Shown: positions 263 to 14,008 of the stretch, piece after piece
Layout of the letters: every line of letters begins with the position of its first letter
Numbering within the stretch: position 1 is the stretch's first letter
Source: a virus
Taxonomy: Duplodnaviria; Caudoviricetes
Virus record (IMG/VR): IMGVR_UViG_3300017780_001057
Span: 1-37,038 of that record
DNA length: 37,038 nt
Strand: one strand, 5' to 3'
Made by a program: the position numbers and the translations under genes
The notes under the pieces: generated by a model
Databases searched by the model: none
The model's input: the letters and a program-made list of their open reading frames with translations, nothing else
What the model was told of the DNA's origin: nothing

Positions 263-512
263 TAACACTTTTTTTTAGATTTTAGTCATATCCAATAGCC
301 TAAACCGCCTAACCGGTTGTCAAGCCCGCGCAAAACCGCCCCTAAATTTAGGCTATCCTCAAATGTTTCATAGCCTAATCGCGCGCCTAAACCGCCCAAT
401 AAATGACTATCGCGTCAACCGCGCGATCGCCCGGCAAAACCGCGCAACAAATATTGCAGCACAAATAGTCATTTTTGGGCTATTTTGACTTTGAGGATAG
501 CCTAACATTTTT

Positions 513-521
513 TTATCCACA
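513..521 (+). promoter_or_regulatory. Perfect DnaA box TTATCCACA
   Basis: Exact consensus, ending 7 nt upstream of the predicted -35. Confidence 0.6.
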
Positions 522-528
522 AAAGGGC

Positions 529-554
529 TTGACGTTATCCTCAAAGGCTATAAT
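529..554 (+). promoter_or_regulatory. Early sigma70-type promoter
   Basis: TTGACG (529-534) and GCTATAAT (547-554), Caulobacter-like layout, upstream of GGAG RBS and first gene. Confidence 0.6.
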
Positions 555-591
555 TAGAGGATAGTTTCAACGCCAATTGGGAGCAAAACAA

Positions 592-1446
592 ATGGCATAC
601 TTTCCGCGTCTTTTCTCAACCGACAACGCTAAAGCCGCAAAGGCTAGCGGCTATGGCTATCTAAACGCCGTTCATTATATGGCGCCGCACAAGCTAGGCG
701 GCGTCGGCAATTTGTGCTCTCACGCTAGTCCTGCGTGCATTGCATTGTGCTTAGGGCAATATAGCGGTCAAGCCGCCATGGTATCAGATTTAGAAACCGA
801 TACTAACCCGACGCGCGAAAGCCGCAAGCTAAAGGCGCAATTGTTTATGCGTGCACGCGGCGATTATATGAACCGCCTTGCGCGCGATATCGTCAAGCTT
901 GACGCACAAGCGACGCGCGAAAGCCTAAAGCTTTGTGTACGGTTGAACGGTTCAACCGATATCGTTTGGGAACGCATTAGCTTTGCGATCGACGCCAAAA
1001 CCGCAAAAGCCTTGCGCTTGCCAGATATGGCCGGGCGCGTTGTGACATTGCCGCAATTGTTTCCTGCTATTCAATTTGTTGAGTATACCAAAAATCCGAC
1101 GCGGCTTGGCAAGGCGCCGCGCAATCTGGATTTGACGCTATCCTATAGCGGAAACAACGCGCAAGCTTGCGTTGACGCGCTGCTAGCAGGCCATAACGTC
1201 GCAATGGTATTTCATGGCGGCTTGCCAGAAACCTTTGCAGGCTTTCCGGTTATCGACGGTGACAAGCATGACTTGCGCCATTTAGACGCCAAAGGCGGCT
1301 ATATTGTCGGGCTAACGCCTAAGGGGCGCAAAGCAAAGAAAGACACAAGCGGTTTTGTTGTCACGCATAGCCTGCCGCTTGGAGCCGGGCTTGAAGCCGA
1401 TATGCGCATTATGCGCCACGCCGCGTCAACCGCGATCGCGGCATAA
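592..1446 (+). CDS. Gp88-like phage protein with Cys cluster (radical-SAM-like fold suspected)
   Basis: NLCSHASPACIALCL, VRLNGSTDI, QFVEYTK, IDGDKHDLRHLD, GLTPKG motifs; ATG 592 follows GGAG. Confidence 0.75.
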   Translation: MAYFPRLFSTDNAKAAKASGYGYLNAVHYMAPHKLGGVGNLCSHASPACIALCLGQYSGQAAMVSDLETDTNPTRESRKLKAQLFMRARGDYMNRLARDIVKLDAQATRESLKLCVRLNGSTDIVWERISFAIDAKTAKALRLPDMAGRVVTLPQLFPAIQFVEYTKNPTRLGKAPRNLDLTLSYSGNNAQACVDALLAGHNVAMVFHGGLPETFAGFPVIDGDKHDLRHLDAKGGYIVGLTPKGRKAKKDTSGFVVTHSLPLGAGLEADMRIMRHAASTAIAA

Positions 1447-1458
1447 GGGGGCGCAACA

Positions 1459-1641
1459 ATGACATATACGGAAACCTTTCGCGCCTATGTCCGCTTTGCT
1501 GATGATCAACCGGCGCAATCATGGGATGGCTTGACGTGGTCAAAAGCGCATTGGCGCTATCATTGGATAAAACGGCAATTCTACGCCGGGCGCTATCGCA
1601 ACGTCAAAACCTTTGGCTTTCAGTCGGAAAAGCACGCCTAG
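1459..1641 (+). CDS. Hypothetical early protein (60 aa, aromatic/basic)
   Basis: ORF with AAGGGGG RBS in tight operon. Confidence 0.75.
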   Translation: MTYTETFRAYVRFADDQPAQSWDGLTWSKAHWRYHWIKRQFYAGRYRNVKTFGFQSEKHA

Positions 1642-1692
1642 CGCCCGATCGCCGCGCGTCTAACCGGGCGCGCGGCTATCATGGCGCTAGGC
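1636..1692 (+). other. Long GC-rich hairpin without U-tract (possible RNase III site)
   Basis: GCCTAGCGCC/GGCGCTAGGC outer stem, GAT/ATC, GCCGCGCGTC/GGCGCGCGGC inner stem. Confidence 0.65.
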
Positions 1693-1716
1693 CATAACCG
1701 GAAAGGATCCGATGCA

Positions 1717-1821
1717 ATGCTATTAGATTTGTCACCGTACCTATCAATTCAAGCTTTCGCTTGGATATGGCTTGCCGGGCTTTGCGCCTTGGCATTTATT
1801 CTGGACCGTAAAGGAAACTAA
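1717..1821 (+). CDS. Small membrane protein, 34 aa (not in ORF track)
   Basis: MLLDLSPYLSIQAFAWIWLAGLCALAFILDRKGN; AAAGGA RBS; one TM segment plus basic tail. Confidence 0.7.
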   Translation: MLLDLSPYLSIQAFAWIWLAGLCALAFILDRKGN

Positions 1822-1824
1822 ACT

Positions 1825-2130
1825 ATGGCACGCGAGATATCTATTGTGCACGCCGATGGAACAACCGCGCGCGTGCAAGGCGCCGTCGCAATTCTAACGC
1901 TAGGCGATCGCAAGCTTAGGGCTTTCATTCATGGCGATACACTAACGCACTATGCCAGCGGTCGCAGGATATGTGATTTAAGACACTACGCTATCCTAAA
2001 CTATCGCTCAAACCGCCGACGCGATCGCCGCGCCGACGCGTGCCTGGCATTGCAGGATTTAGCGCAACGCATAGGCGCCGATAAAGCTTGGCAAGTCATT
2101 GAAGCCGCGCCTGTCATCAATCACAAATGA
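1825..2130 (+). CDS. Hypothetical early protein (101 aa)
   Basis: AAAGGA RBS; LTHYASG motif. Confidence 0.8.
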   Translation: MAREISIVHADGTTARVQGAVAILTLGDRKLRAFIHGDTLTHYASGRRICDLRHYAILNYRSNRRRDRRADACLALQDLAQRIGADKAWQVIEAAPVINHK

Positions 2131-2147
2131 GGAAAGGATAACCGATA

Positions 2148-2336
2148 ATGACAATGAAACTAGAGGATAGCTTTAAATGGCTAGCCGAAAGCGAAAGCGA
2201 TATCGAAAGCATATTGCGCGCTGGAATGATTGAACAGCCCGAACAAGCCGTGGTTGACGTTATGCTTTCGCTTTATCGGCGCGGCTGGAACGACTGCTTT
2301 AAGCTTGCCCGGTTGCATGGCGTAGAAAGGCTTTAA
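2148..2336 (+). CDS. Hypothetical early protein (62 aa)
   Basis: GGAAAGGA RBS; YRRGWND motif typical of small phage proteins. Confidence 0.75.
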   Translation: MTMKLEDSFKWLAESESDIESILRAGMIEQPEQAVVDVMLSLYRRGWNDCFKLARLHGVERL

Positions 2337-2339
2337 GCT

Positions 2340-2561
2340 ATGACAACGCGCAATTATTTTCCGACGCTATCCGACGCCCTAGACGCGGAAAGCTTGAACG
2401 ATATTTGGCCGCTAGGCGTCAATATCAATTATGGCCAGACGATAGGCCTAGCGGTCAATGGCCGGTGGATTAGCGTCTATCGGGATGAAACCGGGCGATA
2501 TGAACGCCCGGTGCACTATGCAACCCAAATGCCCGATACGGGGCCAATATACCTAAGCTAA
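2340..2561 (+). CDS. Hypothetical early protein (73 aa)
   Basis: YFPTLSDAL and ISVYRDETGRYERPVHY motifs; tight spacing. Confidence 0.8.
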   Translation: MTTRNYFPTLSDALDAESLNDIWPLGVNINYGQTIGLAVNGRWISVYRDETGRYERPVHYATQMPDTGPIYLS

Positions 2562-2579
2562 AGGAAAGGATCCGATAAA

Positions 2580-2756
2580 ATGGACTTCACGGATTTAGAG
2601 CACGCAATGGCGCGCAAGGGCTATGTCTATCTGGCCAAAACAAAAGGCCCGACGCCGTTTCGAAAAACAGTCACGCATTTAACCGGCTGTGCACGCAAGG
2701 ATTTAGTTTTCGATATCCCCGCGTACAACGCCCACCTCAAACCCGTAGGAGCATAA
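2580..2756 (+). CDS. Hypothetical early protein, 58 aa (not in ORF track)
   Basis: MDFTDLEHAMARKGYVYLAK...HLKPVGA; GGAAAGGA RBS; fills the gap exactly. Confidence 0.7.
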   Translation: MDFTDLEHAMARKGYVYLAKTKGPTPFRKTVTHLTGCARKDLVFDIPAYNAHLKPVGA

Positions 2757-2760
2757 AACA

Positions 2761-2988
2761 ATGACTGATAGAACCTATTACCGCGCACTGCCGACCGTCC
2801 TGCTGATCGAACAGGCCCGCCATAGCGGCGACGAATTGACAATCGCCTTGGGCGAACGATTAGAAGAGTACGATTGCGACGCAGAAACTATCGCCGATCT
2901 GCTAGAGGACAACAAAAACCTAGACCGACGCATTGACGCCCTACGGGCTGAATTGAACGGCTTATACGCACAATTGGAAATGAATTGA
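2761..2988 (+). CDS. Hypothetical coiled-coil protein (75 aa)
   Basis: AGGAG RBS; heptad pattern in C-terminal half. Confidence 0.8.
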   Translation: MTDRTYYRALPTVLLIEQARHSGDELTIALGERLEEYDCDAETIADLLEDNKNLDRRIDALRAELNGLYAQLEMN

Positions 2989-3047
2989 TGGGGGCGGCAT
3001 TGGCCGCCCTCGCATTGGCCCTGTTGGCCCTATTGATGGAGGATTGA
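2988..3047 (+). CDS. 19-aa hydrophobic micropeptide
   Basis: MGAALAALALALLALLMED; TGATG coupling to upstream gene; stop 3 nt before next ATG. Confidence 0.55.
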   Translation: MGAALAALALALLALLMED

Positions 3048-3050
3048 ACC

Positions 3051-3245
3051 ATGTCTTTAGAAATTGCTGCAATCGTCATGCTGACAGCCGCCGTTGCGGC
3101 TCTGCTAGCCGCCTTGGGCGATGCACAGCGCACAGCCGCGCGATGGAGGCGCGAACACGACCTGTTGGACGCATACTTCACGCAATACCGCAAGAATAGC
3201 ATTCGACGCGACCGCAAGACGGGCCGCTATATCAAAGAGGATTGA
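3051..3245 (+). CDS. Membrane-anchored protein with C-terminal RDxKTGRY motif
   Basis: N-terminal TM segment, GGAGG RBS. Confidence 0.8.
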   Translation: MSLEIAAIVMLTAAVAALLAALGDAQRTAARWRREHDLLDAYFTQYRKNSIRRDRKTGRYIKED

Positions 3246-3248
3246 ACC

Positions 3249-3473
3249 ATGACTGTATCATTCAACGCAAGCCGCCAGCGCCGTGGCGACGAATTAGCCA
3301 TCCTAAAACAGGCCGCTAAGGCACTCAGGGACCACGAGAAGGCCCGTCAGGCACTCAAGGCCCAAGACGAGCGCATCAAGGCCCTGTGCCACGAATATGA
3401 CGTTGCGGCGGGCGTCTGGGGCTTCCAGCCGCACCATCTGCGCAATGCTTGCGAAGCTAGGGGGCTGCTATGA
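3249..3473 (+). CDS. Hypothetical protein (74 aa, helical)
   Basis: GAGGA RBS; ATGA overlap with next gene. Confidence 0.8.
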   Translation: MTVSFNASRQRRGDELAILKQAAKALRDHEKARQALKAQDERIKALCHEYDVAAGVWGFQPHHLRNACEARGLL

Positions 3474-3874
3474 CTGACATCGGCGATTGGGGCGCGGCTA
3501 TGCGCTTAGCTAGACGCGCGTCACTGTTGGCCGGTGAAGAACAACGCCGACTAGGGCGCGTGACAGAGCAGGAAGACAGCAGCATGATGCTTTATACCGA
3601 CAACCCGACCACGGCGGCGCTGTTCGCGCTCACCTCAGACATGGCGGCGATATGCAAGACCAGCGCCATTGAAGGTGTGTGCATCGTCACGGGGGCGGAT
3701 TTTCCGCCAGCAGCGCATGAGGCCGAGCGAGACGACCCTGAACTGCCGCGCGTTGCGGCGATGTGGTTCACTGCGCCCGGCAACAAATGCCCCCGTTGCC
3801 GCCTGTTCAGACAGACAGACGGCGAAGTCTGTAAACCCTGTGAAAAGACGCTGACGAGTATGGCGTTGAATTGA
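3470..3874 (+). CDS. Stand-alone isoleucyl-tRNA-synthetase C-terminal-like domain with FPG/IleRS-type zinc finger
   Basis: W..AMRLARR..L.AGEEQRR.G, DMAAICKTS and APGNKCPRCR...VCKPC parallel the last ~130 aa of bacterial IleRS1. Confidence 0.65.
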   Translation: MTDIGDWGAAMRLARRASLLAGEEQRRLGRVTEQEDSSMMLYTDNPTTAALFALTSDMAAICKTSAIEGVCIVTGADFPPAAHEAERDDPELPRVAAMWFTAPGNKCPRCRLFRQTDGEVCKPCEKTLTSMALN

Positions 3875-3885
3875 TGGAGAAAGAC

Positions 3886-4248
3886 ATGACACCTGTTGAG
3901 CATAACCCCAACTGCGCGATCGTGCGCAGCGGTGACATACGCGCATGGTGCGATTGCGGGGCTGAGATACCCGCGATGAATGAAATCCGGGCGAACGTGT
4001 CCGAAACCATCGGCGCTGGCAAAGAGCGGGAGCGTATGCGAACGCAAATTGCAAACCGCATCGCGGCCCTGCGCTATCGTGAAACAGTCTGTTGGAACAT
4101 GGCGGGCGTGTTCATGTCCGCCAAGGACGCGCACGGACTGCATGACATGGGTGTTGAAATCCAAGGCATCCAATGGGCGATCAGAGAATTGGAAGGACTG
4201 ACTGATGAAAGCGACCGAACGCCAAGTGACACGCGAAATGCTTGCTAA
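3886..4248 (+). CDS. Hypothetical protein with HxxxC...CxC motif
   Basis: ATG 3886 after GGAG; HNPNC...WCDCG. Confidence 0.7.
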   Translation: MTPVEHNPNCAIVRSGDIRAWCDCGAEIPAMNEIRANVSETIGAGKERERMRTQIANRIAALRYRETVCWNMAGVFMSAKDAHGLHDMGVEIQGIQWAIRELEGLTDESDRTPSDTRNAC

Positions 4249-4504
4249 TTTAAAGAAGCCGTTTGCCCTTGTCTGCGAATACCGCGGCGGACATGACGCG
4301 CGTAAGTTTATGCTGTTTGACGGGTTTAATACGCAGCATGAAGCCGAAAGCGAAGGCAAACGGATCGAAGCCTCTAAACCCTTCGCCGATGGTAACGGCG
4401 GGAAACGCGGCTATACTGACCTGAAATGGCGCGTAGAAGTGCTGCACGACACAGAAGAAGATATGACACCTGTCCAACACAACGCAGATCGTTGGGAGGA
4501 CTGA
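4205..4504 (+). CDS. Hypothetical protein (99 aa)
   Basis: GAAGGA RBS; operon context. Confidence 0.7.
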   Translation: MKATERQVTREMLANLKKPFALVCEYRGGHDARKFMLFDGFNTQHEAESEGKRIEASKPFADGNGGKRGYTDLKWRVEVLHDTEEDMTPVQHNADRWED

Positions 4505-4507
4505 CCA

Positions 4508-4639
4508 ATGAAACCAACTAAACCAGCATGGCATGGCGGGAATAAAATCCCTGACACCTATCTAAAGCGGTTTTGGAAATCCGTGGAGGATGAAAGCATC
4601 CCTCACGCCCTGCGCCTGTTCATGGAGAACCTGAAATGA
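4508..4639 (+). CDS. Hypothetical protein, 43 aa (not in ORF track)
   Basis: MKPTKPAWHGGNKIPDTYLKRFWKSVEDESIPHALRLFMENLK; GGAGG RBS; ATGA overlap with next gene. Confidence 0.7.
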   Translation: MKPTKPAWHGGNKIPDTYLKRFWKSVEDESIPHALRLFMENLK

Positions 4640-4881
4640 CGCCAGACCCACAGGCAGACGCAACCATGCTGCGCATCGCACAGAGGCACTATGTCACTGT
4701 CGAGCGTATGCGTGGCCCAGAGCGTAACAAATACATCCAAGCGGCCCGGAGAGCCGCTGCCGACGCCCTACAGAAGCAGGGCTACAACACAACGCAGATC
4801 GGGCGCATCATGGAACGCGACCCGACCACTGTCCTCGCCATGCTGGGACGCATCGGAATAAGGAGCCAAACGAATGACTGA
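4636..4881 (+). CDS. Stand-alone DnaA domain IV-like (Bac_DnaA_C) HTH protein
   Basis: IAQRHYVTVERMRGPERNK..QAARR...QIGRIMERDPTTVL matches the DnaA signature IG..F..RDHTTV. Confidence 0.8.
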   Translation: MTPDPQADATMLRIAQRHYVTVERMRGPERNKYIQAARRAAADALQKQGYNTTQIGRIMERDPTTVLAMLGRIGIRSQTND

Positions 4882-5149
4882 CCAACAAACACCGCCCGAT
4901 TGGGTGCTGATCGAAGCTGCGAAGCGGAGCGGATGGCCGCAATCAACACCGCTTTATGCTGAATATCAAGAGGACAAAGCTTACCGCGCCCTGTGCGACA
5001 TGATCTTGAAGCACGAGCAACCACCCGTAAATCGCAAGCTGCTGTGTGTCGCGGAAGCGATGTGTGAGTTTGGATGGGGTGAAGATTGGATTGGCAGAGG
5101 CGCTTGCTATCGCGCCATCGAACTTTGGGAAGAGGGGTTTGGAAAATGA
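4874..5149 (+). CDS. Hypothetical protein (91 aa)
   Basis: AAGGAG RBS; overlaps neighbours. Confidence 0.8.
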   Translation: MTDQQTPPDWVLIEAAKRSGWPQSTPLYAEYQEDKAYRALCDMILKHEQPPVNRKLLCVAEAMCEFGWGEDWIGRGACYRAIELWEEGFGK

Positions 5150-5367
5150 CTAAGATCATCACCGCCGCTGAGATGGCGGAACACTACGAGCCGCTGATCG
5201 ACCTGTACGGCGCACTTCGGAAGATCGAAGCCCAAGCGGCTGAGATCGAGCAACTGCGGCGCGATCATGCGGCGATGGTAAAGGAAGCCAACATTGCCAA
5301 GGCGCGGCTTAAAGGCGTTCAGAAGCAGTGGTATGCAGACCGCGCAGCATTGGGAGATGAGAAATGA
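5146..5367 (+). CDS. Hypothetical coiled-coil protein
   Basis: ATGA overlap at 5146; GAGGGG RBS. Confidence 0.75.
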   Translation: MTKIITAAEMAEHYEPLIDLYGALRKIEAQAAEIEQLRRDHAAMVKEANIAKARLKGVQKQWYADRAALGDEK

Positions 5368-5573
5368 ACCTAGAACTGGTAACAAACCTATTGCAGCGCA
5401 ACGTCCCTGACTTCGTAAACGATCAGGTGCAATTCTGGGTGGACATGGCGCAGGAAGCCATCCGCCGGGATGAGCGGGCGAAGATCGTGGCGTGGCTGCG
5501 GGAACGCGCCTGTGTGTGGGCCACGGATACTGAAACCGCCGACGACATCGAAGCAGGAGCGCATTTGAAATGA
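5364..5573 (+). CDS. Hypothetical protein (ERAKIVAWLR...ADDIE motif)
   Basis: Motif common in small proteobacterial phage proteins; ATGA overlaps. Confidence 0.8.
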   Translation: MNLELVTNLLQRNVPDFVNDQVQFWVDMAQEAIRRDERAKIVAWLRERACVWATDTETADDIEAGAHLK

Positions 5574-5767
5574 CATTCGGCAGACCATCCACCTATCGGC
5601 TGCTCGACTTGGAAGTCGGCGAGGCGCGGGACTTTGAAGCCCCGACAACCGCCGACGTTACCCGCATCGCCCGCAATGCCAGCCAGACAGGCATCCGGCA
5701 CGACCGATACTTTCGGTGCAAGACGAACAAGCAAACGCGCATCACCACAGTGACGCGCATTAGATAA
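5570..5767 (+). CDS. Small basic putative DNA-binding protein
   Basis: GRPSTY.L.DLEVGE..F pattern; last gene before terminator. Confidence 0.7.
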   Translation: MTFGRPSTYRLLDLEVGEARDFEAPTTADVTRIARNASQTGIRHDRYFRCKTNKQTRITTVTRIR

Positions 5768-5807
5768 AGAAAAACCCCCTGACAGTAGTGAGCCTGTCAG
5801 GGGGTTT
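5766..5807. terminator. Bidirectional intrinsic terminator between convergent operons
   Basis: AAACCCCCTGACAG-8 nt loop-CTGTCAGGGGGTTT, with A-tract on the left (U-tract for - strand). Confidence 0.9.
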
Positions 5808-12434: not shown

Positions 12435-12710
12435 ATGACAGAGAAAGAAATCGAGGCGTATTTCGTGAAGCGCGTGAAGCAGATGGGCGGCTACGCCTAT
12501 AAGTTCCGCAGCGTCACGCAGCGCGGCGTCGCCGACCGCATCGCCTGTATGCCGAACGGTCAGGCTTGGTTCGTGGAACTGAAGAAGCCCGGCGGTCGGC
12601 TGTCGGCGTTGCAGGAAATCTTCGCCGAAGAGATGACGCACACGCGCCAGCACTATGCGTGCTTGTGGTCTAAGGAAGAAGTGGATATGTGGTGCAGCCG
12701 CTTCAGCTAA
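12435..12710 (+). CDS. VRR-NUC domain nuclease
   Basis: EKEIE, RGVADRI, FVELKKPGG.LS.LQ. Confidence 0.92.
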   Translation: MTEKEIEAYFVKRVKQMGGYAYKFRSVTQRGVADRIACMPNGQAWFVELKKPGGRLSALQEIFAEEMTHTRQHYACLWSKEEVDMWCSRFS

Positions 12711-14008
12711 GGCCATACCAGCAGGACGCCGCGACGTTTCTGTTCGAGCGTGACCGCGCCATGATCTTGGCGCCGGTCGGCGCTGGCAAGACCGCGATCA
12801 CGCTGACAGCGATGGCTGAGATGATCCGCGACGGCCACGCCCGGCGCTGGATCGTGCTGGCCCCCAAGCGCGTCTGCACCGACGTGTGGCCTGTCGAGGC
12901 ACCGAAGTGGGCGCCCGGCTTGAAGGTCGCCGTTGGCGTCGGCACACCAAAACAACGACAGGCGGCGTTTGACAGCGACGCAGATGTGGTCGTCACCAAC
13001 TATGACAACCTGCCGACCGTCGCGCACAACTGCGACCGCTTCGATGGGATCGTGTTCGACGAACTGACGCGGCTGAAGAACCCGTCAGGCAAACGCTTCA
13101 AGGCTCTGGAAAAGGTCATCACCAAGCTGAACATCCGCTGGGGCTTGACCGGATCGTTCACGTCCAATGGCCTTGAGGATGTCTTCGGGCAGTGCAAGAT
13201 CATCGACCAAGGGCTGCTGGGCCGGTCGAAGGGCGCGTTTCTGCAACAGTATTTCGTCTGCATCAACCGCGACTTCGGTCAGTGGACGCCTGCGCCGCTG
13301 GCGCTGGAACAGGTCATGCAGCGCATTCGCCCCGCGACTTACGTCCTTGAGCCGGGCGAATATAAGGACAAGCTGCCCCCGTGCCATGTGGTCGAGGTGC
13401 GCTGCGCTCTGGCCGACCGGATGCCCTACCAGAAGATGAAGGTCGAGTATGTCGTGCGCTTCGGCGACGACCGCGTCATTGCGCAAAACGCAGCGGCGGT
13501 CACGACCAAGCTACAGCAGATGGCGTCAGGGTTCGTCTACAACCGCGAGAGCGCCGAGCCGTCGATCTGGTTCAGCAGCCATAAGTTCGACCGGCTGGAA
13601 GAGTTGCTGGCCGAAAACCAGCGGGCGAACACGATCATCTGCTACACCTACCAAGAAGAACTGTCCGAGTTGAAGCGCCGCTTCCCGCACGCCCAGACGA
13701 TTGACGACGCCAACGTCATCGAACGCTGGAACAAGGGCGAAATCGAGTTGCTGCTCGTCCACCCGAAGTCGGCTGGGCACGGGCTTAATCTCCAACACGG
13801 CGGCTGCCACATGGTGTTCCTGTCGCTGCCGTGGTCGCTGGAGTTATACGAACAAACCGTTGGGCGTCTGCACCGCAGTGGGCAGGCGAACGACGTTTGG
13901 GTTTACGTCATGCTGACGGAAAAGACTATTGACGAACGCATCTGGGCCGCGCTGCACGACAAGCGCGCGGTGTCGGATACTGCTATTGAGGAATTGAAGA
14001 ATGGCTAA
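12689..14008 (+). CDS. SNF2-like helicase
   Basis: LRPYQ, GAGKT, FDELT, GLTGS, SAGHGLNLQ, GRLHRSGQ. Confidence 0.93.
   Translation: MVQPLQLRPYQQDAATFLFERDRAMILAPVGAGKTAITLTAMAEMIRDGHARRWIVLAPKRVCTDVWPVEAPKWAPGLKVAVGVGTPKQRQAAFDSDADVVVTNYDNLPTVAHNCDRFDGIVFDELTRLKNPSGKRFKALEKVITKLNIRWGLTGSFTSNGLEDVFGQCKIIDQGLLGRSKGAFLQQYFVCINRDFGQWTPAPLALEQVMQRIRPATYVLEPGEYKDKLPPCHVVEVRCALADRMPYQKMKVEYVVRFGDDRVIAQNAAAVTTKLQQMASGFVYNRESAEPSIWFSSHKFDRLEELLAENQRANTIICYTYQEELSELKRRFPHAQTIDDANVIERWNKGEIELLLVHPKSAGHGLNLQHGGCHMVFLSLPWSLELYEQTVGRLHRSGQANDVWVYVMLTEKTIDERIWAALHDKRAVSDTAIEELKNG

Follow-up and report, generated by a model that had tools for sequence, protein, structure and literature searches.

A free-standing phage homologue of the isoleucyl-tRNA synthetase C-terminal module as a candidate anticodon-covering protein

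Trbp111, PylSn and AlaX/YbaK are free-standing domains or paralogues derived from aminoacyl-tRNA synthetases. The zinc peptide of E. coli isoleucyl-tRNA synthetase (IleRS), when isolated from the enzyme, shows little specificity in its binding of tRNA. In S. aureus IleRS, G34 of the anticodon is read in the zinc finger by the backbone of R888 and by stacking on W890, and the base-specific contact to A35 is made by the helical ARD1 domain (PMC11685878; bioRxiv 10.64898/2026.02.03.703510). The residue that stacks on the wobble base varies in nature. According to the available text of PMC3575796, Arg865 lets M. mobile IleRS charge tRNA-Ile(UAU), and the W905R variant of E. coli IleRS shows a 10-fold gain on UAU, accepts CAU equally and does not lose LAU; the same source describes the Trp-to-Arg change as a natural switch tied to AUA decoding, and reports that B. 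subtilis IleRS has Arg at this site though TilS is present.

Bacterial defences against phages commonly end in an attack on tRNA. Amongst the effectors described, HepS cuts the anticodons of tRNA-Thr, Ile(GAU) and Ser (PMC13043305), a bacterial Schlafen cuts Lys(UUU), Met(CAU) and Ile(CAU) (PMC13056530), and OLD removes the arm of Thr(UGU) (PMC12445682). In the available text of a 2026 review (PMC13728456), the phage countermeasures given are tRNAs that are resistant or amplified, and RNA repair has been described as a countermeasure in jumbo phages (PMC7824862).

The gene and its genomic setting

The window, that is, the whole stretch of DNA analysed here, is a complete virus record of 37,038 bases with direct terminal repeats, and its genes include a P22-like head and tail, a family-A DNA polymerase, a primase, a helicase and a GH19 endolysin. 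No tRNA genes were detected in these 37 kb by ARAGORN. The relatives are uncultured, the closest annotated records being two freshwater phages with terminase identities of 75% and 68%. A freshwater metagenome run contains the entire stretch and may be where this DNA came from. The terminase relatives indicated no host, as their bins are spread over many unrelated taxa, and the endolysin sequence was uninformative in this respect.

The open reading frame of 134 amino acids at positions 3470 to 3874 on the plus strand, delimited as in a preliminary description of this DNA, has its own start and stop codons and unrelated small genes on both sides, and its ATG overlaps the stop codon of the upstream ORF (ATGA, 3470-3473). 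It is found in a block of small co-directional genes (363-5767, plus strand) that is presumed early and is hypervariable among relatives. This block is the context of the gene and not a part of the protein, and we infer early expression of the gene from its genomic position only.

Other elements of this region were also noted. Immediately 5' of the block, positions 1-570 of the window hold a cluster of a 16-20-base motif, with direct copies at about 1, 93, 187-196 and 347 and inverted copies at about 295, 385 and 490, which is a candidate origin, packaging or promoter element. The block is headed by a GP88-family gene (577-1446, plus strand; PF17338, phrog_1617), seen in only one of the 29 viral loci that carry the IleRS-like gene. 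An 81-aa protein encoded at 4636-4881 (plus strand) has a helix-turn-helix resembling the DnaA C-terminus (PF08299, E 8.7e-6, below the cut-off), and may be another captured host module, the second in this block. A basic 65-aa protein of no known family (5570-5767, plus strand) is encoded in all 29 of the viral carrier loci, in many cases one or two genes away from the IleRS-like one, and many non-carriers have it too. Between the block and the converging primase gene lies a 14-bp hairpin (5772-5807), a candidate terminator, and further downstream a SNF2-like helicase gene (12689-14008) is on the plus strand, opposite to the preceding replication genes, in a layout shared by MW202483. Additionally, an early gene of locus L002 (5694-6263, plus strand) encodes a 189-aa protein with weak likeness to the central domain of the DNA polymerase III beta clamp, and genes of this type were seen in 6 of the 21 mapped carrier neighbourhoods.

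Homology to the IleRS1 tail

Compared with IleRS as a single sequence, the 134-aa protein reached an E value of only 0.84, and for this reason a family profile was built, for which 37 of 58 candidates passed and 35 were aligned. Positions 5-134 of this 35-row profile align to residues 794-916 of the type-1 IleRS (IleRS1) of P. megaterium (E 1.8e-4), and a wider profile of 40 rows aligns to residues 796-915 of S. aureus IleRS at E 4e-6. Against PDB sequences, the 35-row profile gave eight matches at E ≤ 10, consisting of five IleRS, one designed repeat protein and two Nop10. Amongst longer proteins, 35 of 7992 scored candidates matched at E ≤ 1e-3; all 35 were full-length IleRS of 966-1003 aa, and those named to genus come from what we take to be Rhodobacteraceae-type bacteria. 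No fused or longer phage form was therefore seen, with the weight that a word-limited search can give to this result. Pfam, PHROGs, NCBIfam and PADLOC returned no significant family for the 134-aa protein, and PF06827, which represents the zinc-binding domain (ZBD), was weakly matched by 13 of the 35 members.

The profile also matched 323 of 401 genomes in the class of genome G001 (binned as Caulobacter), about once each, in a tally that took in the unpublished genomes G236 and G043, and it matched, more weakly, 87 of 151 genomes in the class of G003. Most matches listed in the 401 genomes (145 of 150) were in frames of at least 921 aa. No high-scoring stand-alone copy was present among the matches listed in the 401 and 151 genomes, the best of which scored 67.6 and 46 bits, respectively, against 196.6 bits for the window.

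The AlphaFold model of the protein (pLDDT 93.5) led to the same region of the enzyme, with IleRS1 ranked first in three structure searches. The top seven Foldseek matches, from a check proposed in the preliminary description, were all IleRS1, and amongst 48,161 representative chains IleRS1 was the best at Z 10.1, with the best non-synthetase at 5.2. Alignment of the model to tRNA-bound S. aureus IleRS (1qu2, residues 792-917) gave Z 12.1 and an rmsd of 2.8 over 119 aligned residues. In the ESM Atlas, the protein falls in a mostly viral cluster of 59 members that adjoins zf-FPG_IleRS fragments. Because both the full-length profile and the fold match IleRS1, the likeness is not just that of a CxxC..CxxC knuckle but takes in the whole protein, which rules out a generic zinc knuckle and bears out the IleRS1 ancestry first proposed from motifs. 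Those motifs are all present, with spacers that differ from the ones first given: nine rather than eight residues separate CPRCR from CKPC, and four separate RR from AGEE.

The 134-aa protein is thus a homologue of the IleRS1 tail, comprising the junction domain ARD2 and the ZBD, and is not an IleRS enzyme. The catalytic HUP/Rossmann domain with HIGH/KMSKS, whose lack had been pointed out before, is absent from it, as are the editing domain and the length of an IleRS (about 920-1000 aa), and no other IleRS part was found in the complete 37-kb record. Delimited from the predicted model and the alignment, the junction/ARD2-like alpha/beta domain covers residues 4-101 (3479-3772, plus strand). 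It keeps W7, R15 (S. aureus R805), E23 and R26, and has the family-specific motifs YTDDP, FPP and E..R...E.PRV.A. The treble-clef zinc finger with C107-C110 and C121-C124 follows at 3788-3841 on the same strand. ARD1 (PF08264) was not matched in any of the 35 family members, and the alignment to S. aureus IleRS starts at residues 792-796, after ARD1.

Family, selection and the wobble-base site

A profile scan of 1.84 billion representatives yielded 142 matches at E ≤ 1e-3 and 20 at E ≤ 1e-10, with the weak matches classed as IleRS fragments by BLAST and tree. The main alignment consisted of 52 full-length stand-alone rows and 171 IleRS tails, near-copies and fragments being left out. A search for stand-alone homologues in phages, also suggested at the outset, was productive: a close clade comprises 29 IMG/VR loci that are 78-83% identical and in phage context, and in a further carrier, L039, the gene lies among SSB and HNH genes of another, unrelated phage type. 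For the deep members, for which no loci were found, stand-alone status is based on their own N-termini. No cultured phage homologue was found in 50,697 phage records, where eight weak partial matches had E values of at least 0.08, and none of 32 pattern matches in a GTDB contig scan was confirmed. The open literature, a coverage outside which subscription journals and preprint supplements fall, gave no description of a phage IleRS ARD2+ZBD family, and on that basis the stand-alone IleRS-tail family is taken to be undescribed.

In a 216-row tree, 45 stand-alone rows make up one side of a branch with an SH-aLRT of 95, and in a 53-row subset tree 19 stand-alone rows are on one side of a branch with a support of 99; in a third tree, nine outgroup rows attach inside the family with weak support. 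As a donor lineage, alpha-type IleRS scores best, and AU tests reject neither an alpha nor a gamma sister (p 0.90 and 0.87).

The gene is under purifying selection, with a median dN/dS of 0.11 in 183 usable pairs from 20 unique coding sequences. This value, the internal position of the ORF and the completeness of the record with its terminal repeats rule out a contig-edge or decayed fragment of IleRS. The gene is also accessory and patchy. Amongst the best 80 terminase relatives, 43 span the small-gene block and four of these have the gene, and the nearest of them (94% terminase identity) is without it. When 14 chosen carriers and 37 non-carriers were placed on a terminase tree, the gene came or went seven times, six of these changes being forced by strong branches, which amounts to gain or loss on at least six occasions. 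Most neighbours of the gene turn over among carriers, and there is no tRNA gene or gene for a recognisable tRNA enzyme among these neighbours.

In the alignment to S. aureus IleRS made with the 40-row profile, R15, R26, R109 and R111 of the phage protein correspond to R805, R816, R888 and W890. Residue 111, encoded by CGC at 3800-3802 (plus strand), is therefore at the wobble-base-stacking site, that of E. coli W905 and M. mobile R865. The four Cys and R109 are present in all 52 family rows, R15 is kept in 50 of 52 (96%), A21 in 88% and E23 in 85%, and R26 and K106 are found as R or K in 48 (92%) and 47 of the 52 rows, respectively. At site 111 the family has Arg in 40 rows, Trp in 10, Tyr in one and Gln in one, so that 50 of 52 rows have R or W there while flanking positions vary; the equivalent in IleRS is Trp in 169 and Arg in two of 171 rows, and in alpha-type IleRS it is Trp in 62 of 62. 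On a tree built without this column, W and R switch three to five times, and all 12 loci whose codon was checked use CGC at this site, two substitutions away from TGG. That the site is limited to two characterised readers of base 34 argues that the pocket probably still binds the anticodon.

Other positions have departed from the enzyme. In the IG.SL.A motif of IleRS, the family keeps I in 69% and L in 54% of rows, and keeps G, S and A in 4%, 8% and 15%; in the (C/F)I.S motif the last S is kept in 83% and the I in 0%, being now K, G or R. About 20 positions are conserved in the family only, including YTDDP, FPP and E84/R87/R94, and some of the family-specific changes may make up for contacts that the absent rest of the enzyme would provide. 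The net charge of the family is acidic (median -3), like that of IleRS tails.

The preliminary description took tRNA-Ile as the specific target, and this part of it is not supported, since ARD1, the reader of A35, is absent and Trp is replaced by Arg at the wobble site in most members. Nor does the Arg fix the target, because bacteria that keep TilS can also have an IleRS with Arg; in genome G352 (L222), for example, an IleRS with Arg at the wobble-stacking site occurs alongside a kept tilS, and the part of it that was read has 26 Ile codons, none of them ATA. A broader reader, tolerant of a pyrimidine at position 34, is predicted instead. Inheritance of the Arg from an alphaproteobacterial host was considered and rejected: a pattern search of the 401 genomes found one R-type IleRS (17 matches against 12 in the control), which is distant (10.8 bits) and keeps TilS.

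Possible roles and comparison with known systems

The reading that we favour, at a probability of roughly 0.4, is that the protein is a captured, free-standing IleRS1 tail that binds anticodon arms and whose leading candidate role is to shield host tRNAs from defence effectors that cut or modify the anticodon. A phage would have captured the junction domain and zinc finger of a bacterial type-1 IleRS, and the retained wobble-base pocket would grip anticodon arms broadly rather than those of tRNA-Ile specifically. Binding to tRNA with a loose specificity centred on base 34, covering Ile isoacceptors and probably other tRNAs, is the part that we predict with good confidence. Given such binding, there is about an even chance that the protein, made early, shields the anticodon loop for short periods against nucleases, as a protein alternative to the phage tRNA genes that are absent here. 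The competitors of the cap at the loop would be nucleases such as those of the HepS, Schlafen, OLD or PARIS types. A protein shield would suit a phage that has no tRNA genes and carries an anticodon reader that is mobile yet strongly conserved, and the gene resembles counter-defence genes in its behaviour, with its presence in 4 of 43 relatives, its gains or losses on at least six occasions, its dN/dS of 0.11 and its occurrence in the unrelated phage context of L039.

Several considerations weigh against shielding. Affinity may be low without ARD1, the module is net acidic, the IleRS-conserved IG.SL.A loop is changed, and the carrier neighbourhoods mapped have no constant neighbour of tRNA, RNA-repair or enzyme type. 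A shield would also have to exchange fast and be abundant, because a bound anticodon is hidden from synthetases and ribosomes as well. Patchy early genes, moreover, serve many roles besides counter-defence, and the roughly 20 family-only positions could form a new protein-binding surface.

Those positions (YTDDP, FPP, E84/R87/R94), together with the mobile accessory behaviour of the gene, are also what one would expect if an IleRS-like surface titrated a defence sensor, a toxin or a host partner, or if the new motifs bound a host protein. A mimic should, however, keep the host Trp (62 of 62 alpha-type IleRS) and the IG.SL.A and I.S surface, and exactly these are changed; additionally, no sensor of the IleRS tail was met in the literature searches, none of which was aimed at that question. 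We consider such a decoy or protein binder unlikely.

Codon use bears on a further explanation, somewhat less unlikely than a decoy, in which the protein works in trans with the host IleRS or TilS as a translation helper or synthetase modifier resembling T4 Vs, either promoting charging or maturation of tRNA-Ile2, the minor isoacceptor that reads AUA, or improving tRNA supply under starvation. The link of the Trp-to-Arg switch to AUA decoding (PMC3575796) and the need for T4 vs in minimal medium (PMC13716836) speak for it, as does the ATA share of Ile codons in primase plus terminase, which is 20-38% in 28 of 29 viral carrier rows, many of them near-identical, and 2-15% in 22 more distant relatives. 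The window itself, however, has 5% ATA, near non-carriers do not differ from carriers in this share (p 0.94), and all six independent pairs are without an ATA difference. The same clades are also richer in CTA, TTA and GTA, which points to lineage or host bias. A link between the gene and AUA demand was accordingly rejected, as the raw contrast of 4/16 against 0/27 (p 0.015) is not independent and fails in all six pairs. No tRNA-Ile(UAU) gene was found in carriers.

As a separate observation on codon use, the primase and terminase genes of L001-L029 and L058-L091 show two neighbouring clades of these phages in which ATA makes up about 20-45% of Ile codons with GC3 near 0.68, against 1-15% ATA in their sister clades. 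CTA, TTA and GTA rise less than ATA in the ATA-rich clades, which possibly reflect a host with unusual AUA decoding.

The sequestering of tRNA-Ile raised in the preliminary description is disfavoured for the GAU isoacceptor, because 528 of the 571 Ile codons in 42 window genes (AUC and AUU) depend on it, at an ordinary Ile usage of 5.2%. An inhibitor might instead sequester a low-abundance tRNA, such as the Ile2 precursor (CAU or LAU) or Met, and so slow the translation of host or defence genes. The acceptance of C34 and U34 by W905R IleRS (PMC3575796) and the small use of AUA in the window (43 of 571 Ile codons) agree with this, but most carriers are AUA-rich, and sequestration would hit the phage itself, whose demand for tRNA-Ile(GAU) and Met is normal; we regard an inhibitor as quite unlikely. 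Least probable of all is a repurposed regulator that no longer acts on tRNA and instead recognises a tRNA-like hairpin in the RNA or DNA of the phage. The basic helix and zinc finger are indeed retained and the determinants of specificity loosened, but the gene is found in differing neighbourhoods and phage types with no partner common to them, and ARAGORN found no tRNA-like element in carriers.

Shielding therefore stays our preferred reading, and a wider and more doubtful extension of it would be that phages have repeatedly cut the anticodon-reading tails from host synthetases for use as tRNA caps, and that the Trp-to-Arg change retuned the present cap to the U34 and C34 tRNAs favoured by nucleases. 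Whatever its role, the family contains both Trp and Arg as natural variants of the one residue known to determine how the wobble base is read. It is also a synthetase tail that evolves under selection without its enzyme, which is relevant to the question of how phages or cells acquire and retune readers of the anticodon.

Amongst known systems, the closest is the IleRS1 C-terminal ARD2 and ZBD itself (PF06827; S. aureus 1QU2/1FFY residues 792-917, P. megaterium 8C9E residues 792-919), whose fold is alike over the whole length (Z 12.1 and 10.1). Both have the equivalents of W798, R805, E813, R816, an S, a K, the four Cys and R888, and the same C-terminal helix end. The phage protein differs in being free-standing, without a catalytic, editing or ARD1 domain, in having Arg for W890 in 40 of 52 rows, in its altered IG.SL.A and (C/F)I.S motifs and in the new YTDDP, FPP and E..R...PRV. 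It shares the Arg at the wobble-stacking site with M. mobile IleRS (Arg865) and E. coli W905R (PMC3575796), but these are whole enzymes, whereas the phage swap arose or toggled in a non-catalytic family. Free-standing synthetase-derived domains and paralogues, in the available text of PMC9437257, are likewise single synthetase modules, but cellular ones; a stand-alone IleRS ARD2+ZBD was found neither there nor among the matches listed in 552 bacterial genomes.

T4 Vs, the valyl-tRNA synthetase modifier, is likewise a small phage protein at the aminoacylation step and is non-essential (PMC13716836); Vs modifies a host enzyme, whereas the phage IleRS-like protein is itself a piece of a synthetase, and the two are likened by role and not by homology. 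Phage tRNAs directed against PARIS, Septu and OLD, and RNA repair, would share the proposed purpose of keeping translation running, but they replace or repair the tRNA, and a tRNA-covering protein is not among the countermeasures described in the available texts (PMC13728456, PMC12445682, PMC7824862). If shielding is the true role, protein caps would be a third countermeasure beside replacement tRNAs and tRNA repair, and a small protein that covers the anticodon would be a new type, open to small genomes without tRNA genes.
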